A stretch of 64,000 bases of DNA from Blasia pusilla (lineage: Eukaryota), in contig CM114271.1 of NCBI GenBank assembly GCA_050084515.1, forward strand, positions 12,834,001-12,898,000. The letters are read 5' to 3'. Shown in pieces: positions 3,713-62,487 of this stretch. The position numbers and the translations under genes were made by a program. Position 1 is the first letter of the stretch, and each line of letters starts with the position of its first letter. The notes beneath the pieces are model-generated. The model saw nothing but the letters and a program-made list of their open reading frames with translations, did no database searches and had not been told where the DNA came from.

Positions 3713-4024
3713 TGTGGAAAACTGCTAAACAAGCATAACTGGTGGAAAACGGCTCTTACACACACACACCACCATGGAGAATGAAATTTGCAATGAGAGA
3801 ATGAGTGGAGGCTAGTCCTCTTCTCAATTATCTAGGGTATGTACAAGCAACCCTACGGCTAGCCTTAACCATAGTCTCGAGTTAGACTAACTACGATTAA
3901 CTAATCCTATTTAAGATAATCGTGCTTAATTGACTAACCAAGATTAAGCTTCCCTACTTCGTGTGAGTACCAAATATAGCAGTTCAAGTGTCTTATGAGC
4001 TTGACTGTAACTCAATCTTCAATA
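3713..4024 (-). repeat. Copia 5' LTR (~312 bp)
   Basis: Abuts the PBS; minus strand starts TATTGAAG (TG>TA) and ends TTCCACA; Gypsy homology starts at 4025. Confidence 0.7.
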
Positions 4025-21117: not shown

Positions 21118-24100
21118 TGTCGTGCCCATACACATTGTTGCACAACATACATCGTTGTCACCGAACACACACACAAACACGCACGATTCCATGCTAACTC
21201 ATGGCATCCAAACAACGAGACAAGAAGTACCAAAATATCTCCAATTGCCCCCCAAGCTGGTGGTTAGGTCCCTCTAACTCCAAATAGCCATCTATCCCTA
21301 TCTACCATGATATACATCTCTCGGACGCTAAGAGCAAGAAGGCCGGGTGCTCATGTGGCCCATCGTTAGTCGCCTTCTTGTCATCTATGTCACAGACACA
21401 AGTCAGAATGTAGAACTACCTACTCTATGTACATCTAGGACACATCCATCGTCCCTGAGGAACCCTAGTGAGAGGTGGCGTTAAACATGCCATGTGCCAT
21501 CATCTCGAACATCCATCACAGAGTATCATAGTGGATGCACCATGGACAAAACCACACAACATACATCGCAATCATGCAGGAACTATAGCTAAGCTTGGAT
21601 CAATTATACCGTCAATGTTTGGAAGGTGACACGGCGCATAATTATGCACATGGTCCTTTCAAACCATACCATCGCGTCCCTCCAATAAGAGAACAGATGA
21701 TGGCAAAACCTCACGCACTCTTACGATGCTGCGCCCTTCAGTCGCATCCAACGTCGTGGATGCCATTTGCTGTAAGTAGACATAGTCTCTCTGATTCAAC
21801 CTCCAGATAGTAGGTCGATAACCACCTCCCGTATAGTTGCATACCTCAATGTATCGTGATGTTGCGCAATCGCCAAGTTCTCAAACGCCATGGGCATCAC
21901 TCTCTGAAACAATTCAGCCCTCTGAGAACATGCTGCATCCATACATCAGGATCATTACGATTCAACACCTCACGAACATCTCGACGAATGGCCGCATGAA
22001 TCTGGCTTTCGGCCATATAAAAGCAAGTACGGTGAGAAAGACGCTAAGGATGCTTGCATGTTGAATGTGTATCCCATCGCCAACCATGGCAACTGGAGGT
22101 CCCAATCTCCTAGGTGACCTCTCTGCAAGTCATATATGCGTAGTCCTCTCTTCACCGTCTGCACAACTCGCTCTGCTAGTCCATCCGCCTCGGGATGATC
22201 TCGCGAAGTAGTACGATGGTCAATCACTGCCTGATCACACAAGGCCTGAAACTCCCCGCAAAACTCTGTACCCTGTTCCTCACCTGGTGCGCCGTAATGA
22301 CTCGGCACTTGATTTAAGAAGATATACGCTACTCCCTCACTCGCTTTGTCAGGAAATGCAACCAACTCTATCCACTTCGAGAAGTACTCGACCATCACCA
22401 ACACATAACGACTATGGAGCTCCGTGAAAGGCAAAGGTCCTGCAAAATCCAAACTCCATCTATAACCTAAACCAATGATTAAAAGTGGATGCAACTGTGG
22501 AGTCAGAGCATTGAACGATGCTAGACTCGGTCACACACCACGCATCTGGCAACAAACTACTGAACGTCAGTCTGCATGCCTCGCCACCAATATTGAATCT
22601 GGAGCAAGCTGTATGTCAGCTTCACTCCAAAATGACCCAACTCCTCGTGGGCATGACGCACCAAATGCGCTCTCTGCAAAGGATGAGGCACTACACACAC
22701 TCTACCATCCTCCCACACTTGCAACACATGTGTTCCCTCCCATTGGAACCGTATGGCTCGCTCTAGGATCCGATCCTGCTCTTTAGCACATACTGTACTC
22801 GCAACGCTGCCAGTACGCAAGTACTCCAAGACCACTCCATCGTCGTGAATGTCTTGGCTACCTGTCGTCTCCTCACCGGCCTCTAGATCTAAGGAATCTC
22901 CATCAGACTTCACTATCAAAGTCTAAGCAATCTGGCTCCGCATAGCCAATAAGCCCAAATAGGCTGACCCATGCCATCTTGGCACCAACTCCTCATCACT
23001 CTCACCATGCCAACGAGCTCCAATCGCATCTCGCTTACTCGGGCATGGGTTACGGCTCAAACCATCTGCATCCTGGTTGAGCGTCCCAGGTCTATGTACC
23101 ACCTAGAAGTCATACTCGTGCAACAAAAGAGTTTACGTCCCAAGCTTCCTTGTAAGCTTGTCGAACTCCATCAACCACTTAAGTGGCTGATGATGAGTAA
23201 TGATGGTAAAGGGATTGCCTAATAGATAACATCTGAAATGTGCGAGAGCCCACACTGCACCCAAGCACTCATCCTCATACAAGCTATACTTTGCCACTGT
23301 AGCGTTGTTCGAGCGACTAGCATAAGCCACCATAAAATTTCTACCATCATCGTCATGTTGAGTGAGCACGGCTCCAAGCCCCAATATGCTCCAATCAGTA
23401 TGGAAATGGAAAGGACATCCCTTGATCGGTCCCCTCAGTATGGGCACGGACTTCAATCTATCCTTGAGCATTTGAAATGCTCGCTCCTGCTCATCCCTCC
23501 AGTGCCACTCCTGATCCACCTTGGTCAGCAAGGTCAGGGGCTTCGCAATCGACCTAAAACCCTTGACGTACTGTCGATAGAAGTTCGCCAATCCCATGAA
23601 TGCACAAACTTGATAAACATTTGTAGGGCGTGGAATGCGTGAAATAGCCTCTACTTTTGTCTGCTGTACATCAAGGCCTCTTGGGTTTATCGTATGACCC
23701 AAGTACTCAATTTGGTCATAGAAGAACTTGCACTTGCCTGGATGTAGCTTCAGCCCATATAACTGCAATCGTCAAAATACCTCCTCTAGATGTCGCTCAT
23801 GCTCCTCAATCATGGCACTAAGGACTACGATGTCATCAATATAACACCTAGCAAAATCCAGACCTGCCAAGATCCTATCCATGACCCTCTGAGATTAAGC
23901 CGGGGCGTTCTTTAACCCGAATGGTAAGAACCGCCACTAGTACAAAAATTCTTCTCGGGAGGATCGATGCCCCAAAATTCCGTCTTCTACTGTCCTCCAA
24001 TCTGATAGGCACTTGATGGTATCCGGCTTGCAAGTCCAATGAACTGAAGATCTTTGCATGCCCAATCGCATCAAAGATCTCCTCAGGGGTGGGCATGGCA

Positions 24101-27100
24101 TACCTATCGGACTTTGTCTATCGATTGATAGGTCGGTAATTTCCACACATCCGCCTATGCGTTGAGTTACCATGCACATCCTTCTTGGCGGGCATGAAAG
24201 TGGTATATGCATACTCTCCATGCGACATCTCCACTAGTCTTGCTCCAACCAAATCCTAGCTCCTGCTCTTAATCAAATCCCTCTCCATGTCACTATACCT
24301 ATAGGGTTGTTGGAAGATCAGCGTGTCATTCGACAACTCAATGCGGATCCTTGGACCCTTCAACGTACCCAAATCATGCATACTAAATGTGAAAAAACTG
24401 CTATAACTCCTAAGGAATTGGTGTATTCGGCGCCGATCTCCTCTTGTCAACTTAGGGCCTATATATGGCTCCCAAGTCTCCATCGTGACTACGGTAGGAC
24501 TCTACGGCACAGATGTCGGTGGTTGCTATGGTGCAACCCCATCTCGGACAAAAGAACTCTCATCGCCAGGTGTAGTACCCGGGACTAGGCTCAATGCTGT
24601 GGCTATCATCTCCTGGCGTGTCTCTCTCGATCACCCCTGGTGTGTCGATCTCCTGAGATCTTGCCCCAAGCCACTGCCTCAACCGCCTCGGTAGGCATAG
24701 GGCTCACCAATGCAACCTGGACTGAGAGTCAACTAATCTGCTATCTCGTCTAGCACTCAGCTGGCCTTGACATGGCCAACCAGCAATGACCAAGTCTATG
24801 GTCCCTACCCGCTCCAAGTCCTGCGCCCCCAGCAATGAAATACCCCGCGGTAGGGAACTCTAGTATCCTTGGACTGCGGACGCAGCCAACAAGTTGAGAA
24901 AATGGAGGCCTAATTGCGCCACATGGTGAAGTGAAGGGCGCCTTGCAACATCATCAATCTCCACATACAGATACTGTTGCACGCATACTCCTGCTTGCAA
25001 AACAGCAACTAACCTAGTGCTGATTCCTCCAAAGAGATCCAACACCCGAATACCCCCCTCAGGGATGCGCCACACAATGAGTGTGGTATCCAAGGGCGTC
25101 ATCATAGCACTCTCGGCTACCTCAGGTTCCTCTCACTTGCCACGCCCAGGTGCAAACGTCTCACTCCACACGATCTGCACATGCTCAGTGGCTAAGCGTC
25201 GAAGCTCCTCAGTCGAGCCCCAAAGCGGCACCTCTCCTCCACAAAATAATGCAGCTACCATGACACTCCTCTCCATAGACATGTCAAGAATGGGAATGTC
25301 CTATGCATGGACATGTCCCTCAATCAAATCACTAGGCCAAGTGATGGCCCTACAAAATGCTGCTAAGGTCTCCATCTCTCCTAGCCGTCGCTCGATCACT
25401 GCACCTGTGAATCGAATGTGTAATGAGCCAAGGCATCCATCACTAGAGTGCCATCTTGGTCTATAGGACGCTCACTCCTCCCAATAATCCATGGAAAACC
25501 CCATCGGGTACAACACTGCTCCCCTTACCAAGACGTGGTAAGATTGTGTATCAATCGGTATCGCCTTGGCTCGCACCACAGACTCATCTGTAGGATGTCC
25601 CCAGCGAATCCTCAACACGACCTCTTGTCGGGTGATATACTGGGTGTTACTTGCTCCACCCAAGGATGTCTATATCCGGAATGGACAACACTCCACATTG
25701 GCTCTCGTCAAGCCCTAATCCTCTAAATGACGCTTTCCCCAACATCAAGGGTTGCGCTCTTGAATCCAACAAGATGCGTTGCGGACTAAAAGCTCTACCT
25801 CCCAACTCACCAACTGGAAGACCTCTCGACTGGTTATCCAGCAATACAACACCAAGAGAAGCCATGGCACGCTCTATTGCGGGGCTAGCCGGCATCTCAG
25901 CCATCCTAGTAGTCGTAGCCTGCCATGAATCTGATGTGGACGACCTGAGCATCCGCTCCAAGGGCAAGTCCATCACCTCTGAATATAATGCAAGAAATCC
26001 AACTCCACGCTCACAAAGCGTAGCGGCCATCCAAAAAACTTTGGCGCGTGTACCTCCCAATGTCATAATATCGGAAGCAAAAAATAAAGGAGCACGGTAC
26101 ACAATAGTGGCCGCCCCCAACAACATGCTCGACACATGCTCCTCCTGAGCATGAGCAATAGGAGTCATCGCACTTGCTTCCCCCATTGCCCTTCATGCCT
26201 GCATACCAACAACATCACCCACTCTCTTGGAACTCCGATCACGACCCATTGATGGGGTCCTCATCGCCTCAGACAACGTGAAGGACTGAGGAAGCTTGGT
26301 CTGTTTCTTGGCTTCTCCTCGCTGTGGATCCAACTCTATGTCTAACAACTGCGACGGCCTCCATCTAGGCAAACCCGCACATCCAACTAGGATCCTCCAC
26401 ATCTCTGGCTGCTCCGTATGATGTTAATGTGATGGATCCGGCATGGGGTAACCTCAATGCCATAGCGGCAATCAGCTCATGTAGCTGCTGTATCAAATTC
26501 GCCATCCCAGCCTCACGCCCGACGTCTTCCTCGATGCGTCTAGGTGGTGGGCAACTCCAGCTCCTCGTCCCCCAACGCGACCACCTAGTGCACGACCTCT
26601 AGGCCCACCTGGACCGGCTTCTCGCTCTTGTGCCCTCTCTAACCCTCGCTCTTGACGTAACTCAGGGTGTAAATTGAAACACCTTGCGCGTGTGTGACGA
26701 TACATCTCACAATAGTCATATTGATAACCTCCTAATACAACACCATCTCCTTCTCCATGTTGAGGCATATGTCCATGATCCTCACGAGTGCAATCACGCT
26801 GATGATGGGCTCCACCACATGACCAACAACTAATTGTAGGCGGCTATTGCTGAGCCGCATATGAAGGCGCAGGTCTCTGTGGCATGGCCTCTTGATATCC
26901 TCTCTAAGCTCCTGGTGCCACAGTCAACCTATCGTGGAGTCCACGTTGCTGCATTGGTGGTGCAAAAAATCGTGATTGCTCTTGCCCAGAACCCATGATG
27001 GCTATGCTCTCCTCCGCCATGTTGCGCTCAATGTTCTCGGTGGTCCTAAAAAGATCTGTCAACGTAGGGGAGGTGTTCATAAGAAGCACCCCCTCCCGCA

Positions 27101-27325
27101 CCCATGTCCGTAGGGTCCGGTCTAGCATTGCGTACCATGATTGGATAGCTTGAGCCTCTGTCACCCTCTGAGTGACATTGATCAACCGGCGCAAGTGAGT
27201 GTAAGCCTCACGCAAACTCTCACCCGTGCGCCTCAAGAAGTCGTGGATGCTCCATAACTTCTCCGTCTGTACCCCTTGGTAGCTCTCCCTCTACTCAGCG
27301 AAGAACTCAACCATGGGGTTGAACC
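21118..27325 (-). mobile_element. 5'-truncated Gypsy copy of the DNMT/PHD family, ending in a single B repeat (21118-21245)
   Basis: gag knuckles, protease ILLDSRAQPLMLG, DNMT N-half, RT CYIDDI (~23830-23848), RH, IN WSLDFAG...DGLAERV, PHD ~21425-21570; collinear with 37864-44650. Confidence 0.93.
24715..25060 (-). pseudogene. C5 DNA methyltransferase N-half (motifs I-IV); C-half deleted
   Basis: IRVLDLFGGIS (motif I), YLYVEIDD (motif II), DLVIAGWPCQG (motif IV, ~24765-24795). Confidence 0.85.
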
Positions 27326-36559: not shown

Positions 36560-37219
36560 AGAAAACTTTGACATGTTCTTGAATCCTATATTTTATTGGA
36601 GGATTCCACTTCACAGTCAGATTCATCTGATTATGATATTCCCTCCCTCGAGGATGACGATATGCTCAACGTTAGTGACACCATTTCCTCCGATTTGAGC
36701 TTACATAAGGAAGATCATTCTGAGGTTGATGAAGATATGTGGCAACTATATGAAATGGTATAGGGAAGTAGATTTTTAGGGGATCGAAATGGGGTGCCTA
36801 AATCCAAAGACTTTATGGATAACATCTTCCTTGATTTACCCCCAAATTCATTGAGGCAAGTAACCCAAATGTTCACGAGACTTTCCAAAAAAATTGAGCC
36901 TAATAGAAGACCATTCTATCTTCTACTCGAATGCTTTGGATACCCAAATCTTTGTAAAATTCCAATTGCAATTGGATGTAGCCCTTGACAGGCTAGGGCA
37001 TAACAAAAACAATGCTTGCTTAGTGCACATTCTATTCTTATGGGGCACATCCCATGGTTCTGTTGTGAACTATAGTAGAAGAGTTGTCATTGCTTTGGTT
37101 GATAGACTATCACAAGAGCTACAATGGCCCAACTCACAAGAACGCCAAAGGATCTCATATGAATTTAGAAAACATGGATTCACATGATGTGTTGGAGTGA
37201 TTCATGGGACTTTATTCCC
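36560..37219 (+). pseudogene. PIF/Harbinger transposase, 5' part (interrupted by the Gypsy insertion; start approximate)
   Basis: QLQLDVALDRLGH...WGTSHGSVVNYSRRVVIAL...QWPNSQERQRIS..F..HGFT*CVGVIHGTLF = HARBI1/DDE_Tnp_4-like, up to the first catalytic motif. Confidence 0.8.
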
Positions 37220-37347
37220 TGTCGTGCACATACACATCGCTACACAACATACATCGCTGTCACCAAACACACACACAACCACGCACGATCCCATGTTAAC
37301 TCATGGCATCCAAACACAAAGGTGAGAAGTACCAAAATATCTCCAAT
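37220..37347 (-). repeat. Terminal repeat B2 (128 bp)
   Basis: Direct repeat of 37864-37991, ~12 substitutions by eye. Confidence 0.9.
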
Positions 37348-37861
37348 TAAAGTAAGATCCAATCTCTTTCTACACCATCTCACACCATAGCTCTCAAAGG
37401 TGTGCACTCTCTCTCATGTCAAACCAAACCCACTCTCCTAATGAGAGGCTTGGGTTACACTCACAAGGCAAGGGACCATAGCTCCGTCGCCTCATGCCAA
37501 GAGGTTCAACAAAGAGAGAATGAGCTTTCAAGCTCTCTCTCCTTGAGGTATACTCCTCCCCTCACCCAAGCTCTCTCCATGGTAACCTATTCTCCCAAGT
37601 CACCTCCTTGGCTCCTGATCTGATGCATGAGGTCAAGAGCCACTTACCAAAAATAGAAAGTTGATCATATACTCAAAATGGTACTTACCTAAAATAGTTA
37701 GTTCCTCAATATGGCTCCAAATGAGCCGAAACGAAGGGGAAACTTGCTCTCTAAGGTTTCCTGGGGGCTCACCAGGTCATCCTCAACCTATTGAGCCCGT
37801 CCTCCACTACTCACAAAGGCGCTCTACTAGATCTCACCGATCTATACTAAAAGACGTGACA
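37348..37861 (-). repeat. Repeat A2 (514 bp)
   Basis: Direct repeat of 46796-47309, ~26 substitutions and no indels by eye. Confidence 0.93.
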
Positions 37862-37863
37862 AC

Positions 37864-37991
37864 TGTGGTGCGCATACACATTGTTACACAACATACATCG
37901 CTGTCACTGGACACACACACAAACACGCACGATCCCATGCTAACTCATGGCATCCTAACACAGAGGCGAGAAGTACCAAAATATCTCCAAT
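37864..37991 (-). repeat. Repeat B1 (128 bp), preceded on the sense strand by a PPT-like AGGGGGGTG
   Basis: Direct repeat of 37220-37347; plus-strand CACCCCCCT at 37992-38000. Confidence 0.9.
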
Positions 37992-38177
37992 CACCCCCCT
38001 AGATGGTGGTTAGGTCCCTCTAACTCCAGATAGACATCTATCCCTACCTACCACGACATACATCTCTAAGACACTAAGAGCAAAATGGCCGGGTGCTCAT
38101 GTGGCCCCATCATTAGTCGCCTTCCTATCATCCATGTCACAGAAAAAGAGGGAACTGAAACCTACCTAGTATCTCCT

Positions 38178-38325
38178 CTATGTACATCTGGGACACATCC
38201 AGCGTCCCCGAGGAACCCTAGTGAGAGGTGACGTCTGAGATGCCATATGCCAAGCTCTCGAACAACCATCATATACTAGCATCGTGGCCGTACCATAGGC
38301 AAAACCACACAACATGCAACGTAAG
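38178..38325 (-). pseudogene. PHD finger at the integrase C-terminus
   Basis: CMLCGFAYGTATMLVYDGCSRAWHMASQTSPLTRVPRGRWMCPRC = C4HC3 pattern; the two mutated Cys are intact in the copy at ~21425-21570. Confidence 0.88.
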
Positions 38326-39460
38326 CCTGCAAGAACTACAACTAAGCTCGGATCTACTGTACCATCAATGTTAGGAAGGTGATATGGCGCAAAATTATGC
38401 ACATGGTCCTTCCATACCATACCATCGCATCCCTCCAGCAAGAGAAAACCGGATGGCAAAACGTCACGCACTCTCAGGATTATGCACCTGCAGTCACATC
38501 CAACGTCGTCGGCGCCGTCTGCTGCAAGTAGACATAATCTCCTTGATGAAACCTCCGGATAGTTGATCGATAATCACCACCCCGAATAGTCGCATACCTC
38601 AACGTATCCCGATGCTGCGCAATCGCCAAGTTCTCGAACGCCATGGGCATCACTCTCCAAAACAACTCAGCCCTCTGAGAACATGCTCGCATCCATACAT
38701 CTGGGTCATCAAGGTCCAACACCTCACCAGCATCTCGAAAAATAGCCACAGGTAAATCTAGCTCTCCGCCATAAAGTGGCAAGTACGGTGAAAAAGACGT
38801 TAAGGATGCCTGCTGCTGAATCTGTATCCCATCGCCAACTAGGGCAACTGGAGGTCCCAATCTCCTAGGTGACCTCTCTGCAAGCCATACTTGCGTAAAA
38901 CCCTCTTCACCGTCTGCATAACTCTCTCCGCTAATCCATCCGCCTCACGATGGTCTATCGAAGTCGTGCGATGGTCAATCAGTGCCTGATCACACAAGGC
39001 CTGGAACTCACCGCAAAACTTGGTACCCTGGTCTGTCAACACCTCAGCTGGTGCGCCATAATGACTCAGTACTCTGTCAAGGAAGGCATAGGCTACTTCC
39101 TCACTCGCTTTGTCAGGCAATGCAACCGACTCGATCCACTTCGAGAAGTGCTCGACCATCACCAAGACATAACGACTATGACGCTCCGTCAAAGGCAAAG
39201 GTCCTGCAAAATCCAAACTCCATCTATACCCTAAGCCCATGATCGGTAATGGATGCAACTGTGGAGTCGGAGCATTGAACGATGCTCGGACCCGATCACA
39301 CCACATGCACCTGGCAACAAACTGCTGAACGTCAGTCTACATACCTCGCCACCAATACTGAATCTAGAGCAAGTTGTACGTCCGCTTCACCCCAAAGTGA
39401 CCCAACTCCTTGTGGGCATGCTGCACTAGTCCTGCTCTCTGCAAAGGATGCGGCACTACG
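38326..39460 (-). pseudogene. DDE integrase (HHCC + rve core)
   Basis: HKELGHFG zinc domain; WSLDFAG, VLTDQG, DGLAERV catalytic triad. Confidence 0.93.
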
Positions 39461-39879
39461 CGTACTCTGCCATCCTCCAAAACCCTCAAAACATGTGTCC
39501 CCTCCCAACGGAACCGTCTGGCCTGCTGTAGGATCCGATCCCGCTCTCTAGCACCCACGGTGCTCGTAATGCTGCCAATCCGAAGGCACTCCAAGAATGC
39601 TCCATCATCATGAATATCTCGGCCATCTGTCGTCTCCTCACTGGCCTCGGGATCGAAGGACTCTCCACTAGACCTCGCCATCAAAGTCTTCACACTCTGG
39701 CTCTCCATAGCCAACATGCCTAAATAGGTTGACGCGTGCCATCCTGGCACTGATTCCTCATCACTCTCTCCATGCCATCGAGCTCCAATCGTATCTCGCT
39801 GACTCGGGCATGGGTTACAACTCAACCCATCTGCATCCTGGTTGAGCGTCCGAGCTCTATGTACCACCTGTAAATCATA

Positions 39880-41030
39880 CTCCTGCAACATCACAACCCA
39901 TCTCGCAAGCTTCCCTATAAGCTTGTCGGACTCCATCAACCACTTCAGTGGTTGATGATCAGTGATGATGGTAAAGGGATTGCCAAAAAAGTAACATGTG
40001 AAATGCGCGACAGCCCACACCGTAGCCAAGCACTCACCCTCATACAAGCTAAACTTTGCCTCTACAGCATTATTTGAGCGGCTAACATAAGCCACCACAA
40101 ACTATCTACCCTCATCATCATGCTGGGTGAACACCGCTCGAAGCCCCAACATGCTCCAATCTGTGTGCAACTGGAAAGGATGCCCCCTAATTGGTCTCCT
40201 CAAGATGGGCGCGGATGTCAACCTGTCCTTGAGCAACTGAAATGCTCGCTCTTGCTCATCCCCCCATTGCCACTCATGATCCACCTTGATCAGCAAGGTC
40301 AACGGCTTTGCAATCAAAGTGAATCCCTTGACGTACCGCGGATAGAAGTTTGCCAATCCCATGAATGCGCGAACACGGCTCACATCTATATGGCGTGGAT
40401 TGCCTGAGATAGCCTCTACCTTTGTCTGCTGAACACCAAGGCCCCTTGGGTATATTGTATGACCCAAGTACTCAATCTGGTCGTAGAAGAATTTGCACTT
40501 GCCTGGATGTAGCTTCAGCCCATGTAATTGCAATCGTCAAAACACCTCCTCTAGATGTCGCTCATGCTCCTCAACCGTGGCGCTAAAGACTAAGATGTCA
40601 TCAATTTAACACTTAGAAAAATCCAAATCAGCTAAGATCCTATCCATGACCCTCTGAAACTCATCCGGGGCATTCTTTAACCCAAATGGTAAGAACCGCC
40701 ACTGGTACAAAAAATCCTTCCCGTGAGGATTGATGCCCCAAAATGCCCTCTTCTGCCTGTCCTCTAATCTGATAGGCAACTGGTGATATCCAACTCGCAA
40801 ATCCAATGAATTGAAGACCTTTGCGTGACCAATTGTATCAAAGATCTCCTCACGGATGGGCATGGCATACCTATCGAACTTCTTGTGCCGATTGATAGGT
40901 CGATAATCCCCACACATCCGCCTATCCTTCTAGTTGCCATGCACATCCTTCTTGGCGGGCATGACAGTGGCAGATGCATACTCCCTATGCAACATCTCCA
41001 CTAATCCTGCTCCAACCAAGTCTTGGCTCC
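39880..41030 (-). pseudogene. Gypsy reverse transcriptase + RNaseH
   Basis: MCGDYRPIN, LDLRVGYHQL, LPFGLKNAP, C*IDDI, KCKFF..IEYLGH, FQLHTDWS, YEGECLA, ITDHQPLKWL. Confidence 0.95.
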
Positions 41031-41589
41031 TACTCTAAATAAGAGCCCTCTCCATATCACTATACCTGTAGGGTCGTCGGAAGATCGGCGTATCACTCAA
41101 CAACTCAATGCAGATCCCCGGTCCCTTCAGCGTACCCAAATTCTCCATGCTAAACGCAAAGCAGCTCCTATAACTCCTGAGGAACTGATGTATTCGGCGC
41201 CGCTCTCCTCCTGTCAACTTAGGGCCCATATCTGGCTCCCAAGTCTCCATTGTGACTACGGTAGGACTCTCCGACGCGGATATTGGTGGTTGCTATGGTG
41301 CAACCCCCTCTCGAACAACAACACTCGACCGCTCTCCTACAGCCAACTGCAAACTCTGATCTCCTCCACATGCATTTCCCGGAACCACGCTCGATGTTAC
41401 GACTATCATCTCCTGGCGTACCTGCAAAACATCCTAAGAAGTCCAAGGGTGTCTCTCTCGATCTCCCCTGGTGTGTCAATCTCCTCGGGTCTCGCCCCCG
41501 CCATTTCCTCCACCATCTTGGTAGGCATGGGGCTCACCAACGCAACTACTCTGGTCTGTCGCGATCTCAACCGACGCTGCTCAGCCACT

Positions 41590-42540
41590 CCCAAGCTAAA
41601 GATCCATGTCAAGTAGTTCAAGTCCATCGCCTGACCCAAGATATGGTGTCGTGATGCCTCTGATATTGACAGGAGTGGCGTCACTCTTAGGGGAAATCCC
41701 ATCGCCCGCTCTCTCTCATCGGCGTTGGGCTCCACCAACCTCTGAACCTGGTCATCCCAAACCAAGCCAAGACCGGCCTCCTTGTATGCATAGGAAGCGG
41801 GAAAACTCACAAACGTGGGAAAGGCTGCCCGCGGCTTGCCTACCTTGTTGACCACAGTCAACGGTGGTCGATCATCGTGCCTCACTGCCTGTGATCATGA
41901 GCGACAACCTAGATCCACAATGGAATCCACTAACAAATGGGAGGGGCGCTCCACTCTCGCATATGCCCTCCGTAACACCGCATGGGGCACCAAATTGGTC
42001 CATTATAGACGCGGGCAATGGGCTCTAGAACCTACACTCGCCGCATCCAAGAACACTGCTGGGCCGATCCAAGCATGCACCTAATAAGCACTCGTCACCA
42101 CCCGTGACCTGGAGTCTCCTAAGATGGGCACATTCTCCACAATGTAGGCTAGAGAATGAGATTGGTGCTCTCGCAACTGCCTCAACCTCTCCCAAAACAA
42201 CCTGGACCGAGTATCAGCCAACCCGCTGCCTTGTCGAGCGCTCAATTGGCCCTGACATGGCCAACCAGAAATGACCAAATCAATGATCCCTACCCGCTGT
42301 AAGTCCTGCGCCCCCAGCAACGAAATATCCCTCGGTAGGGAATTGTGGTATCCTTGTACCGAGGACGTAGATAATAAGTCGGGAAAATGTAGGCATAACT
42401 GCGTCATATGTCGTAGTGAGATGCGCCTTGCAACATTGTCACTCTCCACATACAAGTACTGTTGTACTCGCACTGCTGCCTGCAAAACAACAGCTAACCC
42501 GGTGCTAATCCCTCCAAAGAGATCTAACAGTCGAATATCC
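41590..42540 (-). pseudogene. C5 cytosine DNA methyltransferase domain (DNMT3-like, unpermuted motifs I-X) inside pol
   Basis: I LLDLFGGI (42507-42530); II YVESD; IV DLVISGWPCQG (GWPCQ 42252-42266); VI YIVENV (~42130); VIII PAVFLDAASVGSRAHCPRL*WTNL; IX ERERAMGFP; X SRHHILGQAMD. Confidence 0.92.
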
Positions 42541-42929
42541 TCCTCCGAGGTACACCACACAATGGGGGTGGTATCCAAGGATTTAATCGTAGCACTCCTT
42601 GCTACCTCGGGTTCCTCAGACCCGTCATGCTCCGGTGCAAACGCCTTGCTCCACGCGGTTTGCACGTGCTCATCGGCCAACCATCGAAGCTCCTCAGTCG
42701 AGCCCCACAGCGGCATCTCTCCTCCACAGAATGAAGCGGCTACCATAACACTCCTTTCCATAGAAATATCAAGAACGGGAGTATCCTCTGCATGGACATG
42801 TCCCTCAATCAAATCACTAGGCCAAGTGATGGCACTGCTAAGTGCTGCTAAGGTCGCCATCTCTCCTAGCCGTTGCTCGATCACTGCACATGTAAATCGA
42901 ACGGGTAATGAGCTAAGGCACCCATCACC

Positions 42930-43298
42930 TCACTGCCATCTTGGTCTGTAAGACGATGACTCTTCCCAGTAATCCAGGGAAACCCCCATCGAGTATAACA
43001 CTGCTCCACCAACCAAGGCGTCGTAGGACTCTGCATCAGTCACTATCGTCTTGGCTCGCACCACGGACTCATCTGTAGGATGTCCCGGGCAAATCCTCAC
43101 CACAACCTCCTGTTGGGTGATATACTGTGTGGTACTCGCTCCACCCAAGGATGTCTGTATCTGCAATGGACAACGCTCCACATCGGCTCTCATCAAGCCC
43201 AATCCTCTGAATGACGCTTTCCCCAACATCAGGGGTTGCACTCCTGAATCCAACAAGACGCGCTGCGGACTAAAAGCTCTACCTCTGGGACTCACCAA
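42930..43298 (-). pseudogene. Retropepsin-type aspartic protease
   Basis: VLLDSGVQPLMLG and YDALVGG motifs. Confidence 0.85.
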
Positions 43299-43873
43299 CT
43301 AGAAGACCTCTCCTCTGTTATCGAGCAACACATCACCAGGAGAAGCCATGGCACGCTCTATCGCGGGTCTAGCGGGCATCTCCGCCATCCTAGCAGCCGC
43401 AGCCTACCATGAATCTGACGTGGACGGCCCGAGCATCCGCTCCAAGGGCAGGTCCATCACCTCCATTGCAATCACCTCTGAATGTGATGCAGGAACTCCA
43501 ACTCCACGCTCACATAGCGTAGCGGCCAGCCAAAAAGCCTCAACGGGCGTACCCCCAACGTCATAACATCGAAAGCAGAAAATAAAGGAGCGCGGTATAC
43601 AATGGTGGCTGCCTCCAACAACGTGCTCGACACATGCCCCTCCTAAGCATCAACAATAGGAGTCGTGGCACTCGCTTCTCCCATCGCCCTCCGTGCCTGC
43701 ACACCAGCAACATCACCAACTCTCCAAGAACTCTGATCAGGACCCATCGATGGGGTCCTCATCGCCTCGGACAACATGAAAGATTGAGGAAGCCTAGTCT
43801 GTTTCCTGGCTTCCCTTCGTTGTGGATCCAACTCTGCAACTGCTCCACGCGTCACAACTGCGGCTGCCTCCAT

Positions 43874-45111
43874 CTAGGAAACCCCGCTCATCCAACCTGG
43901 ATCCTCCATCTCTCTGGCTGCTCCATATGATGTCGATGCGATGGATCCGGCATCGGATAATCTCAATGCCATAGCGGCAATCTGCTCCTGTAGCTGATGT
44001 ATCTGAGGAGCCATCCTAGCCTCATGCCCGGCATCTCCCTCGACGCATGTAGGTGGTAGGACACTACCTCCCCCATGGGCAGCTCCACCACCCTGTCGGG
44101 CAACTTCAGCTCCTCGTCCCCCAACAGGACCACCTGGTGCACAATCTCTAGCCCACCTAGACCGGCTACTCACTTTGGTGCCCTCTCTGGCCCTCGGTCC
44201 GGACGTAACTCAGGATGTAAACTAAAACTCGTGGCGCGTGTATGACCATACCTCTGATAATAGTCACACTGATAACCTCTTGGTGCAGCACTATTTCCTC
44301 CTCCATGCTGAGGCACATGTCCATGACTCTCATGAGTGCAATGGAACGCTGATAATGGGCTCCACGACATGACCAACAAGTTATAATAGGCAGCTGCTGC
44401 TGAGCCGCATATGAAGGCGTGTGCATATCACTCAGGGTCCGGTCTAGCATCACATACCATGACTGGATAGCCTGAGCCTCTGTCACCCCCTGAGTGACGC
44501 TGAATTTCCGGCGCAAGCGAGTGTAAGCCTCATGCAAACTCTTACCCGGGCGCCTCCGGAAGTCGTGGATGCTCCGCAACTTCTCCGTCCGTACCCCTTG
44601 GTAGCTCGCCCTCAACTCAACAAAGAACTCAACCACACGGTTTAACCTGGGATGAACCCGACTAGACGGTGCAACTGCTCCCGTGCGAGTGATCCCTCCT
44701 AAAACGTCACTAGTGGAAGAGGAAGTAGCCTCTTGTGACTCCTCCTCCTCATGTGGGAATGGCTCCGTCCATGACATATAATGTGGGTCACAGTTGAGCC
44801 TCCACGCCTCGATTTCACGTGCATATCTCTGAGAGAACTCATGGTAATCGTCCCTCTAAATGCTGGAACATACCATTCCAAGGTGTAAACGGGTTGAACT
44901 CTCTAGAGTTCCTTGCTCGTTGGAAGTCGCACCAACTCCTAAACTCTGCTATGAAATCGTGCAACTCAATCGTACCTACTGCACCTGAAAACCTACGCGG
45001 TCCTCTACCCCAATCGTCCATCTCGTACGCCCAAGTGGTAGGACCACTCACAATATGTGGCGATGTGCTCACAAACTCCTCTACACGCTCCCCCTTGTTT
45101 GAAGACGACAC
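43874..45111 (-). pseudogene. Gag with two zinc-knuckle remnants
   Basis: RRFSGAVGTIELHDFI, FRRRPGKSLHEAYTRL, CWSCRGAH and CDYYQRYGH knuckles. Confidence 0.8.
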
Positions 45112-46795
45112 AGAAGGAGATCGAGGTGGTCTCTCACGTGGAGATCCTTGAAACCTTGCACCAATCCGGGTAAACCGTCCAGAGCTACTCTCTCGTCCAC
45201 TACCTCGCCTCTCAAAATCCTAAAAGGACGCCGTGATGGCCCTCGTGCCCCTCTCACACGATCACTCTCAACCTTGCAAGTAATCCCTCAATCACTCATC
45301 CCAAACATGCGTCACTTGATCTACACTCTCCCCGAGACATGTAACGTGCGGCAACAAGCGGCGTGGGGCGGAAAATCGACAAGGCTTTCATCTCATCGAC
45401 AACCTACCCTCAACTCCGGACATCCCACACAAGTCTATGTCCCCTAAACCACATACATAGATGATGCTCTCAGCATCCACATACCCAATATCCCCAAATA
45501 AACTACCCAAATCCCATAATCCCTCACACGTGCAGGGTAAAGGACCAGAATGGGTAACCTGAACACATGTCGATGTCGCTCCTCAGCAACTGCAAATCTC
45601 GACATCAACTCGGTCATGGAGACAACTCCTCCAATCAGCAAGTCATACTCCTCCCGTACTGACGCTGCTTAAAACTCCTTGATGGACAGTGTGGTTCCAG
45701 CGGAACGATGCGGCGTTGTAGGCGGTACGGAACGGCTACGAACGACACAACCCTCGATGGTGGGATGCGGCACTCGGAGGCATACCCTCCTCAATCAACA
45801 ATAAACCCACACTCTACTCCACAATGATGGTGCGATTCCGCGATCGAGACGGTGCAAAGGCGCCACGAAGCGCACGGGCGCAAAGAATCGGGCGCGCTGC
45901 GTTTTACGGGCGTCAGAGCACGGTACTCGATCGTCGTTGAGCGGCTACCAATCACAACATAGCAGCATGAAATCAAAACTCAACCACCATAAGCGGAGGT
46001 CATCTGCCATCACTGGATGATGACGAAACTTTGATGACGGTGGCGGCCAAAACAAAGTATGTGGTGGCGACGCAAGTGAGAGAATCAAAAAATGTCGTGG
46101 AAGACCCTACACTCCGTAATGGTGGCAATGGCAACCAAAGGGTGGACAACGGCCGAATGTGGCTCTGAGCAACGTTGGGCAACGGCAATAGCCGACGGTG
46201 GCCGGTGGACCGTTGACGGTGAGTATGAAGGTGACGGCTGCCGCCGGCATGGCAGCTGGTTTAGGGTTTAACCCTAAAAATCGCCTAGCAATGGAAATTT
46301 TGCAAGATTGACCATAACTTTTTACTTGCAACTCCAAATTAAGCACCGTTTGTTGCACAACGTGCATAGCTTCATGATCTAAAATAGTGTCAAAAAATAT
46401 TTGGAATTGAACATTCCAAATAACGGAGACTGTCGTAAAGCCCAATATCTCTTTCTCCTACACAAAATTTGGCAGCGCTTCCGTGCTGATTTCTCCCAAC
46501 CAAAACGTAAAACCTGTAAAAATACAAATCAGCAAGCTACATGGTGCTTCTGAGAGCATCAGAATGGGGCAACCCACTTCCATGATCAATCCCTATCAGA
46601 AATTGGGCAGCACTTCCGCACGCCACTCTTCCACACGAAAAATCGGAAAATGCAAAGAACAATCAAAGCAACCCTTGCTCTGGTGAGCACTCTTCATGAG
46701 CTGCTGAACGGGGAACACGATCCCCAACCTGAAAAAATAGCAAGTGACCAGCGAGCTCCCCCATGAAGTTCTCTCACTCTCTCGTTCTCTCTTTG

Positions 46796-47309
46796 TAAAG
46801 TAAGATCCAATCTCTCTCTACACCATCTCACACCATAGCTCTCAAAGGTGTGCACTCTCTCTCATGTCAAACCAAACCCACTCTCTTAATGAGAGGCTTG
46901 GGTTACACTCACAGGGCAAGGGACCATAGCTCCGCCGCCTCATGCCAAGAGGTTCAACAAAGAGAGAATGAGCTCTCAAGCTCTCTCTCCTTGAGGGATA
47001 CCCCTCCCCTCACCCAAGCTCTCTCCATGGTAACCTATTCTCCCAAGTCACCTCCTTGGCTCTTGACCTGATGTAGGAGGTCAAGGGCCACTTACCAAAA
47101 ATAGAAAGTTGATCATATACTCAAAATGGTAGTTACCTAAAATAGCGAGTTCCTCAATATGGCTCCAAATGAGCCGAAACGAAGGGGAAACGTGCTCTCT
47201 CACGTTTCCCGGGGCCTCAACAGGTCATCCTCAACCTACTTAGCCTGTCCTCCACTACTCACAAAGGCGCTCTACTAGATCTCACCGATGTATCCTAAAA
47301 GACGTGACA
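46796..47309 (-). repeat. 5' terminal repeat A1 (514 bp)
   Basis: Sense strand starts TGTCACGTC; direct repeat of 37348-37861. Confidence 0.93.
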
Positions 47310-47313
47310 TCCC

Positions 47314-47900
47314 CTTCCGTCAAAGACCATGAGACTCTCATCAGACATATTTTGATAGGAAATCAAATTATTCTATCAATGCATAAGTAGTCTACGACAA
47401 GCGAAGGAGGATAATTTTACTCTTCATTGGTATGTATGTTACTAATGCTTTCATATTCAACAATATTATTTTTCTTCTATAGTTCAGATGATCTACTCAA
47501 CCAAATTTGATATTTGTGTTTGACAATGCAGTATGTCTCGATCTTGCCATGATTTCACCTGCTTCAAGAAATCAAACTTGTGTAGAAACATGGTCAACCC
47601 TGGTACATTTCATGAAGATTAGTTCCTACTTGGGGACAGTGGGTACTCTCCACTCCCAAATTTGGTCCCCTCCTATCGCATAGCATGTACGAACTTGGAC
47701 GTTCAGGATTTCAACAAATATGTCACCCACACAAGAGTAATGAATGAGCATTTTATAGGTGTCTTGAAATCTGGATGGAATTATTTTTGTGAAATACGGA
47801 TTCAATTGAATAATCCATGATGCAATCATAGATTGGTGAAATGAATCACATGTTGTGCAATTTTGCACAACGTTACTTTGTGATTAATCGGAATGACCTT
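47314..47900 (+). pseudogene. PIF/Harbinger transposase, 3' part (probable intron from ~47430)
   Basis: FRQRP*DSHQTYFDRKSNYSINA*VVYD; GDSGY; FNKYVTHTRVMNEHFIGVLKSGW; CCAILHN. Confidence 0.85.
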
Positions 47901-55845: not shown

Positions 55846-57035
55846 TCATAAAAAAATTGGCATATCACTGGCCCAATCTATCCATATACAAGGATACTTC
55901 AAATTTCCTAGATCCTTCGTACTAAAGGAAACAAAACTTATGCACCCTCTCTTGAACAAATTTATCCTTTGTCTTTTTTTTCTTGTCAAATTGAAACCTA
56001 CCAGAGGCTCCCAATTATCTATATATTGTGATTTCATTCAAAGAACAAGGCATAATTTGTGGTTGCTCCTCATTACCCTGGTCACCTCTACTACAAATTA
56101 ACACCCCACGTTGATCTGCATTATTATGCTCTACATCTAAAAAAATAGCATGTGGTTCATGAGACATTTTTGCATTCCACTCAAAGGATGTCTTAGGAAT
56201 TGAAGTCTATGGGTGCCCATCTCTCCTTGTCTTGTCCCCAACCAATGGCTCAAAAATATCTATAGCAATGTGTCAATATATGGACGTGATCAATTGGATG
56301 CCTCTAACATTCATTATTACTCATCTAATCCTACATTTACTATCCTTGTGAGAAAATTCAAATTGATAGGCTCTTTGAAATCCATCATAAGCTCACTTCA
56401 ACACCTCTAATGGTCATGGTTGCACAGAAATGGGCTTAACCAATGGGTTTCCCCCCCCCCGGTCGGGTTTTTTTGGTACCCCGTAGGTTGCACGGGCTTA
56501 GGACACAAAAACGAGAATAAGTTGCCTGCGAGCTAGAGTTCGCCTTGCGGGCTCAAGGCAGGCCAGTTAGGACTACAAAATCGGCGACAGATTCTTAGAG
56601 TACGTGCAGGCTGGTCAAGCCCAGGTCTACGTTATGGGCGGGGAGAGCTCGGGTGCAGGCCGTGGGTAGTAGGGTAGGGCCCGCACGGACATGGTCACAT
56701 GGATGATGGAACTGTCTGTAGATACGAACTTTGTCCGTGTGCCAACCCTATTTAAATCATGTGCTCCGGAAAATGAAATCTTATGGGCAACGTTTGCTGG
56801 GATTTATGTACTTTCCATACCAATAACAATTCAAGATACTTCAAGACCAACCTTATCACATATTGTAATGAGACTTATGATACAATCTCATCTTTCCCAA
56901 CATATAGATATTTATGTACTGATATATTGTTTTATAACACTATAACCAACCATATGCCAATCTCTTGGAAGAAATCAAAAAATCTCACATCCTCCTCTAG
57001 ATGATACCATACAACGAGTGTGGTATCCAAGAATG
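55846..57035 (-). pseudogene. Very old remnant of the DNMT-Gypsy family: DNMT N-terminus (56752-57035) and pre-RT segment (55846-56037)
   Basis: LDTTLVVWYHLEEDVRFFDFFQEIGIWLVIVL*NNISVHKYLYVGKDEI aligns with LDTTPIVWCTSEEDIRLLDLFGGISTGLAVVLQAAVRVQQYLYVESDNV; DNWEPLVGFNLT...KDLGNLK aligns with ETWEPDMGPKLT...ENLGTLK. Confidence 0.75.
56415..56750. mobile_element. hAT-type MITE copy
   Basis: Starts CATGGTTGCACAGAAA, ends TTTGTCCGTGTGCCAACCCTA; no clean TSD. Confidence 0.55.
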
Positions 57036-60100: not shown

Positions 60101-62487
60101 TGTCGTGCGCATACACATCGCTACACAACATATATCGCTGTCACCAAACACACACATAAACACGCATGATCCCATGCTAACTCATGGCATCCAAACAATG
60201 AGACGAGGAGTACCAAAATATCTCCAATCAAATAAGGTCAAATCTTTCTCACAGCACCATAGCTCTCACATGTGTGCACTCTCATATGTCTCTCTCAATG
60301 TCAAACCAAACCCACTCTCCTAATGAGAGGCTTGGATTACACTCACAAGGCAAAGGACCAAAGCTCCGCCGCCTCGTGCCAAGAGGATCAACCAAGAGAG
60401 AATGAGCGTTCTACTAGATCTCGCAGATCTATCCTAAAAGATGTGACAGTTGTCGTACACATACACATCGCTATACAACATACGTCGTTGTTACCAAACA
60501 CACACATAAACATGCACAATCCCGTACTCATGTGGCCCCATCGTTAGTCGCCTTCTTGTCATCCATATCACAAGACATAAGTCAAAATCTAAAACTACCT
60601 ACTCTATGTACATTTGGGATACATCCATCATTTTTGAGGACCCTAGTGAGAGGTGGCGTCAAACATGCCATATGCCACCATCTCAAACACCCGTCATAGA
60701 CTAGCATAGTGGTTGCACCATGGGCGGAACCACACAACATACATTGCAAACCTGTAGGAACTATTGGTAGGCTCAGATCAACTATCACGTCAATGTTAGG
60801 AAGGTGACATGACGCACAGTCTTTTTCCTAAATGTTGAAATAATAATTTAAATTATAGAATAAAAAACTAAATTGATAATGAAAAAAAGGTAACTTTGAT
60901 TTTGGGATTCTATTTTTTAATTTAATTTCATCTTTAAACAAAAATTAATTATTATTTAAGAAACGTCTTTTCTATTCAACTCTCAACTTAGTATAGGGAA
61001 AATTAAACAATAATTGAGTATATGAAGGCTTCATAAGTGAAGTTCACGGGGAGCTTCTAAGCCAGGGCTAACGCCCTTAATGAAGCTCTCTCACTCACTC
61101 ATTCTCTCTTTGTAAAATAAGATCAAATCTTTCTCACAACCCTATAGTTCTCACATGTGTGCACTCTCACATGTGTCTCTCAATATCAAACCAAACCCAC
61201 TCTCCTAATGAGAGGCTTGGGTTACACACACAAGGCAAGCAAGACCATAGCTCCGCTCCTTCATGCCAAGAGGTTCAACAAAGAGAGAATGAGCTCTCGA
61301 GCTCTCTCTCCATGGTAACCTATGCTCCCAAGTCAACGTATACAACAAATTATGTGGTGGCAGCTCAAGTCAGAGAATCAACAATCGTCGTGGAAGACTG
61401 TCCACTCCGTAATGGAAGCAATGGCAACCAATGGCGGAGAACGGCCGAACGCGGCTCTTAGCGGCGGTGGCCAAAAATTGACGACAGACAGCGGACGGCG
61501 ATGGTGGACCATTGATGGTGATGGTTGACCATTGATGGTGACTATGATGGTGACGACCGTCGCCGGCACGGCGGCTAGTTTAGGGTTTTAGCAATTTTAC
61601 CGTAAAAATTGCCTAGCAATGGCATTTTTGCAAGATCAACCATAACTTTTTGCTCACATCCTAAAATTGTGCACTATTTCTTCCATAACGTGAAAAACTT
61701 TGAGATCTACGAAAAGGGCTAATTTTGGTTTAATTCAACTTTCCCACAAAAACTGACGGGAACTATCATGCAGCCCTTCAAATCTGCACTCCTAAGACAA
61801 TCGGCAGCGCTTCCGCGCTAATTTCTTCCACAAAAAACTTCAGACCTATAAAATCACAAACCAACAAGCTACTTGGTGCTTCCAAGAGCACTCAAATGGG
61901 GAAATCCGCCCCCAAAATTCATTTATACAGAAATTTGGGCAGCGCTTCCGCACGCCACTCTTCCACACAAAAAATTAGCAATGGAAAACGGTAAAACAAG
62001 TAGCGCTTGCTCCGGTCAGCACTCCCATGAGCCGCTGAATGGGGAACACGGTCCCCAACCCGCACCAAAAATGAGTAACCAGCGAGCTCCTCCATTGAAA
62101 CTCTCTCCCGCTCTCATTCTCTATTTGTAAAATAAGGTCAAATCTCTCTCACAACACCATAGCTCTCATATGTGTGCACTCTCACATGTCTCTCTCAATG
62201 TCAAACCAAACCCACTCTCCTAATGAGAAGCTTGGGTTACGCTCCCAAGGCAAGGGACCATAGCTCTTCTGCCTCGTGCCAAGAGGTTCAATAAAGAGAG
62301 AATGAGCTCTCAAGCTTTCTCTCTTGGAGGTATACCCCCTTCCCTCTCCCAAGCTCTTTCCTCGATGACCTGCTCTCTCAGGTTACCCGTGGCCTCAACA
62401 AATGATCCTCAACCTCCTAAGGCTGCCCTCCAATATCTCCAAATGCGCTCTACTAGATCTCGCCAATCTATCCTAAAAGACATGACA
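60101..62487 (-). mobile_element. Internally deleted derivative of the split-repeat Gypsy, 4-bp TSD TTGT
   Basis: B2 60101-60228, A2 60229-60448 (internally deleted), spacer, B1 from 60451, PHD remnant 60582-60788, extra partial A ~61113-61330, 5'UTR, A1 62128-62487; TTGT at 60097-60100 and 62488-62491. Confidence 0.9.

Follow-up and report, generated by a model that had tools for sequence, protein, structure and literature searches.

We analyzed a 64-kb stretch of the genome of the liverwort Blasia pusilla (GenBank assembly GCA_050084515.1, contig CM114271.1, positions 12,834,001 to 12,898,000; the whole of this stretch is termed the window), in which a C5 cytosine methyltransferase domain, predicted to be of the DNMT3 type, lies on the minus strand at 42542-41589. 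The domain is housed in what is very probably a 10.1-kb long terminal repeat (LTR) retrotransposon of the Ty3/gypsy type (47309-37220, minus strand), a dead copy of a lineage termed Gypsy-DNMT3. In the direction of its coding strand, the element consists of a terminal repeat (A1), a leader, a first open reading frame (ORF1) for Gag, protease (PR) and the methyltransferase (DNMT), an in-frame TAG, a second open reading frame (ORF2) for reverse transcriptase (RT), RNase H (RH), integrase (IN) and a PHD finger, a polypurine tract (PPT), and the repeats B1, A2 and B2.

A DNMT3-like domain in frame with a gypsy protease

When the minus strand was translated in one frame from 43298 to 41406, the protease motif VLLDSG was followed, about 130 residues on, by the methyltransferase domain, with no indel or intron over 1.9 kb. 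Motifs I-X of the domain are collinear and not permuted, and read LLDLFGGI/LFGGIS (I), GWPCQ (IV), ENV (VI), LDAASVGSRAHCPRL*WTNL (VIII, the asterisk being a stop), ERERAMGFP (IX) and SRHHILGQAMD/LGQAMD (X). Thus, the C5 methyltransferase motifs quoted in the initial annotation of this DNA were all recovered, in the order given there, within this single frame, and the interval to which it assigned them (41590-42540) agrees almost to the base with the domain mapped here. Its statement that the protease ORF and both DNMT ORFs share one frame broken only by point stops likewise holds: in-frame stops are present at 42932-42930, 42083-42081, 42005-42003 and 41897-41895, and the frame ends at 41408-41406.

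The read-through frame was compared to Pfam profile PF00145, a check that had been named with the assignment, and the window domain matched at 29.6 bits (E 6e-7; cut-off 22), within the range of 24.7-51 bits scored by its relatives. By phmmer, the best match in the PDB was DNMT3A (E 5e-9), collinear in two stretches that cover motifs I-VIII and then IX-X. A profile built from 43 family members matched DNMT3A at 2.5e-26, DNMT3B/3C at about 1e-23, M.HhaI at 2e-9 and DNMT2 at about 1e-6, whereas no DNMT1 or chromomethylase (CMT) chain of the PDB was matched at E<=0.01. Tobacco and Arabidopsis DRM were matched by this profile at 1e-14 to 2e-11 and aligned over one half only, in keeping with the circular permutation of DRM. 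An AlphaFold model of the window domain (X at stops, 43-row alignment) had a pLDDT of 89.7 and a pTM of 0.88, and its top Foldseek matches in the PDB were all catalytic domains of DNMT3A/3B/3C (E 2e-16, TM 0.77 on target). Based on these profile and fold comparisons, the window domain is DNMT3-like, nearer to DNMT3 than to DNMT1, CMT, DRM, DNMT2 or bacterial enzymes, in agreement with the earlier proposal that it is of the DNMT3 kind and free of the DRM-type permutation. Among library proteins, the domain had 1537 matches at E<=1e-3, of which 144 were at E<=1e-30. Pfam detected neither PWWP nor ADD in the PR-DNMT read-through or in the gag and protease ORFs of the window copy, nor in ORF1 of two relatives, one from Marchantia (P0003) and one an intact metagenome element (L022). 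The sole reader domain of the element family is the PHD finger on the integrase.

Structure of the element

The two coding regions were mapped by homology to Marchantia ORF1 and to ORF2 of L022, which placed Gag-PR-DNMT at approximately 45030-41296 and RT-RH-IN-PHD at 41292-38181. The order PR-RT-RNase H-DDE integrase of Ty3/gypsy elements (Metaviridae) is present, with the DNMT domain placed between PR and RT. All features of the element lie on the minus strand. Upstream, the flank ends in GGGA (47310-47313, minus-strand reading) just before TGTCACG, and the same four bases follow the other end of the element (37216-37219), forming a 4-bp target-site duplication. Terminal repeat A1 (46796-47309; 514 nt) starts with TG and is 95% identical to repeat A2 (37348-37861), the two differing at 26 of 514 sites. 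It is followed by an untranslated leader (45031-46795), as homology to Marchantia ORF1 (P0003, residue 9) begins at about 45006. The Gag part of ORF1 (43299-45030), which was delineated by tblastn of P0003 residues 9-546 in three frames, has several frameshifts and a degenerate CCHC knuckle (CWSCRGAHY), and zf-CCHC is present by Pfam in relatives. The aspartic protease with VLLDSG (42933-43298) is in the DNMT frame, and Asp_protease_2 is found at the matching place in ORF1 of L022 and in the relatives P0059 and P0035. The gag and protease ORFs of the window copy itself had no Pfam match, and Gag and protease were assigned in this copy via homology to relatives.

The methyltransferase domain (41589-42542), assigned by Pfam, PDB and Foldseek matches, contains three internal stops and has a Cys for the first Arg of motif VIII. 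The ORF1 tail that follows (41296-41588) is out of frame with the downstream stop in the window copy, as judged from relatives and DNA reads. Beyond the stop and its context (41287-41295), ORF2 starts with the reverse transcriptase (RVT_1; 40450-41292), to which residues 6-824 of L022 ORF2 align in one frame at 60% identity. It continues with RNase H (39877-40266; Pfam RT_RNaseH and RT_RNaseH_2), an integrase with an H2C2 zinc-binding domain and a DDE core (Pfam rve; 38959-39438), and a degenerate PHD finger at the integrase C-terminus (38184-38318). The PHD finger matched PF00628 below the cut-off in the window copy (E 1.3e-4) and is clear in L022 ORF2 and in the proteins P0036, P0058 and P0079. 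A polypurine tract, AGGGGGGTG (37992-38000), lies directly 5' of repeat B1 (37863-37991; 129 nt, ending in CA), which is 91% identical to repeat B2 (37220-37347). Repeat A2, identified by comparison with A1, lies between them. The end of the element, CA at 37220, was set by repeat comparison and read breaks: at 37220, 4549 host DNA reads pass into flanks that vary (agreement 0.34), and therefore this position is the true terminus of the family.

The repeats are thus arranged as A ... B-A-B and not as two identical LTRs at the ends. The same A-int-B-A-B arrangement is found in an independent metagenome element (L016), which also has TG..CA ends, a 4-bp duplication (CATA) and an equal polypurine tract at the matching place. 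No tyrosine recombinase was among the Pfam matches of the scanned ORFs, and the rve DDE integrase is present instead. Among the DNA and RNA reads are some that pass from 47309 straight back to 37220, in most cases over two additional letters, and others that connect 37990 with 46796, a skip of 8805 letters. Such joints are ascribed to B1-A2 and A2-B2 junctions inside other copies, mapped here to the equivalent outer repeats, and are not counted as evidence of circles or tandems, although such forms may exist.

An in-frame stop between ORF1 and ORF2

The ORF2 frame opens right after the TAG at 41295-41293, the context of which is TAG CAA CCA; a second family member in the window (copy B) has an equal context. 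In relatives, ORF1 and ORF2 are in one frame with exactly one stop between them. This is seen in L022, where an ORF1 of 1369 aa (PR and DNMT) is followed in the same frame by TAG and an ORF2 of 1047 aa (RT-RH-IN-PHD), and Marchantia ORF1 proteins (1278-1281 aa) terminate at the corresponding place. When 17 loci with the in-frame stop were compared, the stop was TAG in 11 and TAA in 6, and the next codons were CAA CCC in 14, CAA CCT in one and CAG TTA in two. The ORF1 tail of the window copy is out of register with this stop, and at 41494 a single additional base is present in 196 of the 1079 DNA reads that stem from other copies.

UAG-CAR-YYA is a leaky-stop motif of plant viruses. The TAG CAA CCA context resembles this motif and marks the stop as a candidate read-through site. 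In this arrangement, the methyltransferase forms the C-terminal part of a first reading frame, Gag-PR-DNMT, upstream of a conserved stop. The initial annotation had regarded the domain as part of a polyprotein inside pol; the frame shared with the protease bears out the polyprotein, while the conserved in-frame stop, which divides Gag-PR-DNMT from RT-RNase H-integrase, calls for refinement of 'inside pol'.

Relatives, architectures and phylogeny

Relatives of the DNMT domain at 50-62% identity were found among proteins of Marchantia polymorpha, Calypogeia fissa and Sphagnum species, and relatives at 34-41% identity in Sphagnum fallax and Closterium. The Marchantia matches include an 18-member cluster at >=90% identity (1278-1281 aa), several members of which are on the V chromosome. 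The PR-DNMT arrangement recurs in copy B, Marchantia, Calypogeia, a Closterium protein (P0035; CCHC-PR-DNMT) and metagenome loci; in the metagenome census, 25 (DNMT) and 24 (RT) of 82 sources reached 80% coverage. No vascular plant was among the named matches listed, which comprised all 47 of one search and the best 120 of 161 of another, a weak test given that the search was by word index.

Two architectures were distinguished. In the first, CCHC-PR-DNMT is followed by RT-RH-IN-PHD (the window copy, Marchantia, Closterium, L022 and P0059). In the second, the order is RT-RH-DNMT-IN-PHD, as in the metagenome proteins P0036 and P0058 and in P0079, a 3225-aa protein of the chlorophyte Scenedesmus sp. 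annotated 'pol'. The DNMT domain thus stands at two places in related PHD-bearing gypsy elements, and therefore the module moved at least once. At E<=1e-30, the DNMT domains of the two architectures all fall into a single family.

A tree of the DNMT domain was built from 44 rows picked from more than 400 proteins (all named taxa with enough coverage, and sampled metagenome rows) and was midpoint-rooted. The window copy fell in a clade with Calypogeia, Sphagnum and Marchantia (support 100/100), with Closterium and architecture 2 outside it. Copies of each host genus were monophyletic (100/99 to 100/100). Sphagnum grouped with Marchantia, so that the liverworts were not together, at a support of only 90/86. 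Moss copies are as near to the window copy as Marchantia copies are, and a large decayed family among the metagenome loci L001-L032 groups with Sphagnum proteins (95/80 with S. fallax).

An element of similar makeup, KnitGypsy-Dnmt3 of the alga Klebsormidium nitens, is described in passages of de Mendoza et al. 2018 (PMC5890265) as having A-coding-B-A-B repeats 'as in DIRS' and a gypsy domain set. The citation of this work in the initial annotation, for retrotransposon-borne DNMTs, proved apt, as the published element has repeats in the same order as those found here. Klebsormidium records were not among the named matches of our protein searches, nor were host DNMT3 or DRM proteins of plants; the DNMT matches obtained were all of transposon type. 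The liverwort and moss elements might instead stand apart from the Klebsormidium lineage, either through an independent capture of DNMT3 by another gypsy lineage or through horizontal spread among bryophytes. The two positions of the module (PR-DNMT-RT in streptophytes, RT-RH-DNMT-IN in Scenedesmus and the metagenome) would fit such a history, as would the weakly supported grouping of Sphagnum with Marchantia, and the likeness to the Klebsormidium element is drawn from architecture and repeats, not from sequence. We regard a separate origin or spread as unlikely, since the rare A-coding-B-A-B order on an element with a DDE integrase is common to the published element, the DNMT domains of both architectures are one family, and the monophyly of copies within each genus fits long residence better than frequent transfer.

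One Marchantia protein of the transposon family, Mp_8g17980 (P0006; 1248 aa), is named 'DNA (cytosine-5-)-methyltransferase' in UniProt. The host gene MpDNMT3b is given as Mp5g09290 in the part consulted of bioRxiv 10.1101/2021.02.12.428880, and this locus is distinct from the Marchantia transposon proteins.

Copies in the window and abundance in the host

By tblastn with the PR-DNMT read-through, three more DNMT-bearing remnants were found in the 64-kb window. Copy B (21117-27325, minus strand), with about 82% nucleotide identity to the element and 69% amino acid identity over PR and the N-terminal half of DNMT, keeps motif I and GWPCQ; a deletion of about 650 bp, with an overlap of about 10 bp at the junction, took motifs VI-X. 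Only one B repeat stands at the end of copy B, as would result from a loss of A2 through B1/B2 recombination. The other two are a fragment of the C-terminal DNMT half, with stops, from a more distant element (7911-8339, plus strand; 36% amino acid identity) and a short fragment of the DNMT N-terminus (56857-57030, minus strand; 41% identity over 58 residues). As these two remnants are only 36-41% identical, more than one DNMT-bearing subfamily is present in the genome. The window also contains a 5'-truncated family copy that begins just behind DNMT, from RT onward (4025-7877, plus strand; 77-80% nucleotide identity), and a cluster of A/B repeat and leader fragments of the family (60101-62495, minus strand).

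Raw reads of the host were mapped on the element at >=90% likeness, the DNA being about 1.9 Gb of Hi-C reads (about 1% of the run). The DNA depth on the element was approximately 1000-3800 (both orientations summed), and 226,829 of 278,060 DNA reads were only 90-95% alike to the window copy; therefore, the family is very abundant and the window copy is a diverged member of it. Such a depth would correspond to hundreds to thousands of copy-equivalents for any genome size of 0.3-3 Gb. In each of three RNA-seq runs, about 3100 reads mapped on the element, with the first mate 10-40 times more often on the plus strand, which corresponds to the sense (minus) strand of the element if the usual stranded library chemistry is assumed. 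Nearly all RNA reads were only 90-95% alike to the window copy and thus derive from transcripts of other copies. The family is abundant and sense-transcribed in its host.

Bins of the DNMT region had read depths of 1068-2111, compared to 1349-1843 for gag bins. As the DNMT bins are as deep as the gag bins, the domain is not absent from most family members, an outcome that had been raised in advance as a reason to doubt that it belongs to the element. These data also bear on the reading that the locus is a chance chimera, in which gypsy fragments happen to break up or flank a DNMT3 gene or pseudogene of the host that is not part of an element. The window is a pile of nested transposons, in which such an accident might be suspected, and the stops in the window copy make its reading frames weak evidence. 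A chimera is nonetheless highly improbable: no indel or intron breaks the frame that runs on from the protease for 1.9 kb, the PR-DNMT junction is repeated in copy B, the 18 near-identical Marchantia proteins, Closterium and 25 metagenome loci and has its equal in the intact L022, the DNMT and gag depths are equal in the host, and the Marchantia host gene MpDNMT3b is another locus.

Decay of the window copy and constraint on the domain

The window copy is a pseudogene, incapable of any of the activities proposed below, because PR-DNMT is broken by four stops and has Cys for an arginine of motif VIII, frameshifts affect gag, the ORF1 tail and the integrase, and ORF2 also contains stops. The arginine concerned, the first of motif VIII, is kept in 145 of 148 relatives. 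The stop in motif VIII is at a position occupied by Tyr, Phe or Trp in relatives, and two further stops are inside the domain. Thus the motif VIII R-x-R and an open reading frame, both of which the window copy is without, are present in relatives. Decay driven by methylation was considered for the window copy and found unsupported: the 26 of 514 sites that differ between A1 and A2 comprise 14 transitions and 12 transversions, with 6 of the 26 in a CpG context, and the CpG observed/expected ratio is 0.75 in the element compared to 0.57-0.86 elsewhere in the window.

Conservation was counted in relatives. Of 211 proteins matched, 154 spanned the domain and 148 were distinct, with 57 partial proteins and 6 duplicates left out. 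The dN/dS comparison and catalytic-motif check foreseen in the initial annotation gave a divided answer. In favor of a maintained enzyme, the catalytic Cys is conserved in 144 of 148 relatives, the ENV Glu in 148/148 and the ENV Asn in 141/148; the two motif VIII arginines are kept in 145/148 and 143/148, and ERE..G of motif IX is nearly invariant. When 17 ORF1 proteins were aligned, the columns without variation clustered in the protease and most strongly in the DNMT part. In a near-intact pair of metagenome elements (L022 and L028), the DNMT region has a non-synonymous rate (dN) of 0.036 and a synonymous rate (dS) of 0.233, a ratio of 0.156, and 29 of the 83 differences are non-synonymous compared to 75% expected (binomial p 6e-15). 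The decayed copies gave less: in 19 loci of one Sphagnum-like family having both regions, dN/dS was 0.51 for DNMT, 0.40 for RT and 0.64 for the ORF1 tail. The ratio drops as dS rises, a trend that would be expected where neutral decay of inserted copies masks, in part, the selection acting on active lineages.

Genomic surroundings

An apparently intact alpha-expansin gene with DPBB_1 and Expansin_C domains and at least one intron is located at approximately 12770-13778 (plus strand). The closest matches of its 13182-13775 part are all liverwort expansins, namely those of Marchantia paleacea (81%), Riccia fluitans (79%), Riccia sorocarpa (74%), Apopellia (73%) and Calypogeia (71%), and the earlier description of this neighbor as an expansin of embryophyte type in a land-plant host is confirmed. 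These matches place the host among the liverworts, probably the complex thalloid ones, and apart from the species listed. On the 47310 side of the insertion is a remnant of a PIF/Harbinger-type transposase (DDE_Tnp_4; 47623-47820, plus strand; E 2e-5, just below the Pfam cut-off), and on the 37219 side is an ORF with no Pfam match (36864-37187, plus strand) that perhaps belongs with this remnant. The gypsy element may have landed inside a DNA transposon. A Ty1/copia fragment with RVT_2 and a retroviral SH3-like integrase domain is present at 177-2316 (minus strand), and the segment 52001-54000 is very AT-rich (GC 0.24, compared to 0.38-0.53 elsewhere in the window).

Discussion

In intact relatives, the methyltransferase is probably a working S-adenosylmethionine (SAM)-dependent C5 DNA methyltransferase, to judge from its conserved motifs. 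Ribosomes would mostly halt at the TAG, such that Gag-PR-DNMT would be made in Gag amounts and RT-RH-IN-PHD only via occasional read-through, and the methyltransferase may be freed by the protease or kept tied to Gag. The solved structures nearest to the PHD finger are the PHDs of CHD4, PHF12, PHF21A, KDM5, AIRE and UHRF1, which read unmodified H3 tails; the integrase PHD finger may accordingly be of a kind that would steer insertion to chromatin with an unmodified H3 tail. As to the target of methylation, action on the new DNA of the element itself, in the particle or at integration, is a tentative suggestion that we hold to be somewhat doubtful; passages of de Mendoza et al. (PMC5890265) propose as the target the cDNA of the element or its newly inserted copy. 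Broad action on host DNA is unlikely.

Several points weigh against this reading of the element and its enzyme. The dN/dS of decayed copies is only moderately below 1 (0.51), and the ratio of 0.156 comes from one pair in a sister clade, which shares 47-49% identity with the window domain. In 54 of 148 relatives the motif IV sequence is GWECQ, with Glu in place of Pro before a catalytic Cys that is kept, which is unusual for C5 methyltransferases (in which Pro-Cys is near-universal) and could mean altered chemistry. Passages of PMC5890265 report that the KnitGypsy-Dnmt3 domain gave no methylation in yeast, a result that the authors deemed inconclusive as human DNMT3B failed too. Read-through of the TAG is deduced from its nucleotide context, and kinship with KnitGypsy-Dnmt3 is suggested by shared architecture and repeats compared by description. 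By inspection, with no systematic tRNA comparison, no TGG-type primer-binding site was found after A1 in the window copy or in L016.

Some of these points would also be expected if the domain were kept for a role other than DNA methylation, either as a DNMT3L-like module for DNA or chromatin binding or for oligomerization, or as an RNA methyltransferase in the manner of DNMT2. The negative result in yeast for the Klebsormidium domain, the Glu before the catalytic Cys, and the location of the domain in the Gag-PR frame, adjoining the RNA-packaging part, could each be taken in this sense. DNMT3L-like proteins have lost catalytic and SAM-binding residues. In the present family, the conservation of the catalytic Cys, the ENV Glu and both arginines of R-x-R exceeds the needs of a structural role, and the family profile matches DNMT3A/B at 1e-26 to 1e-23 but DNMT2 at only about 1e-6. 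A role other than DNA methylation is thus quite improbable, and a DNA methyltransferase is the reading we prefer.

On a broader and speculative view, which we consider unlikely to hold in all its parts, Gypsy-DNMT3 would be an old lineage spread across green plants (type 1 in Closterium, mosses and liverworts, type 2 in a chlorophyte) that is still transcribed and proliferating in liverworts. It would make its DNMT in Gag amounts upstream of a leaky stop and combine this writer with a PHD finger that reads the H3 tail, and so mark its own new DNA before or at integration. If this were true, Gypsy-DNMT3 would help shape bryophyte methylomes.

A cytosine methyltransferase carried by a retrotransposon is the converse of the usual situation, where methylation is imposed on the transposon by its host. 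The plant-lineage case in print is that of the alga K. nitens only, with few copies, whereas the present host is a liverwort with very high copy number and sense transcripts. Among the 'hypothetical proteins' of Marchantia polymorpha, close relatives with open frames have been deposited without comment, and the near-identical open copies of this tractable land-plant model, such as those of the Mp_4g09160 cluster, make the function of a transposon-borne DNMT3 testable. Counts of 'DNMT3' or 'DNA (cytosine-5-)-methyltransferase' genes in bryophytes need checking, as some are Gag-PR-DNMT proteins (e.g., Mp_8g17980).

Elements of this kind have been noted elsewhere. The consulted text of bioRxiv 10.64898/2026.05.21.726589 uses the naming 'streptophytes (Gypsy-DNMT3)', and that of PMC12344493 mentions retrotransposon-embedded DNMT3s 'in streptophytes and dinoflagellates'. 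A paper on liverwort transposons (PMC9985172) does not mention a methyltransferase, and a search of full-text literature, with subscription journals, figures and supplements outside its scope, found no paper naming DNMT-bearing elements in liverworts, mosses or any land plant.

Among known enzymes, the catalytic domain of animal DNMT3A/DNMT3B is the best match by sequence (2.5e-26) and fold (TM 0.77), with motifs I-X collinear; identity is only about 20%, however, the stretch between motifs VIII and IX is longer here, and Gag and protease are fused in front of the domain. Plant DRM1/2, which are DNMT3-derived de novo methyltransferases, are a weaker though significant match (1e-14 to 2e-11) and differ in that they are permuted; the alignment is confined to the motif I-VI half of the window domain and the C-terminal half of DRM2. 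The histone-tail reader fused to the integrase C-terminus is reminiscent of chromoviruses, in which it is a chromodomain and not a PHD finger. SymbioDIRS-Dnmt3 of Symbiodinium also is a retrotransposon with a DNMT3-type domain and A-coding-B-A-B repeats, and is reported in passages of de Mendoza et al. 2018 (PMC5890265) to carry out de novo CG methylation in yeast; it differs as a DIRS element with a tyrosine recombinase, compared to the DDE integrase, TG..CA ends and target duplication of the present element.

The closest parallel is KnitGypsy-Dnmt3, which is likewise a gypsy-type element whose coding region includes a DNMT3-like domain, intronless and not permuted, with A-coding-B-A-B order, conserved catalytic residues and evidence of purifying selection (published Ka/Ks <0.2, compared to 0.16 for one pair here), as far as the consulted passages of PMC5890265 describe it. 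The two differ in host, which here is a liverwort with relatives in Marchantia, Calypogeia and Sphagnum, and in abundance, as the family is very abundant here while these passages stress few copies in K. nitens. The present analysis adds the conserved in-frame stop that separates ORF1 from ORF2, the PHD finger of the integrase, the PPT and, at the termini, TG..CA and a 4-bp duplication; some of these features may be in the figures or supplements of that paper. The Gypsy-DNMT3 kind of element is thus already known, and what is new is its land-plant (liverwort) host group and this anatomical detail.

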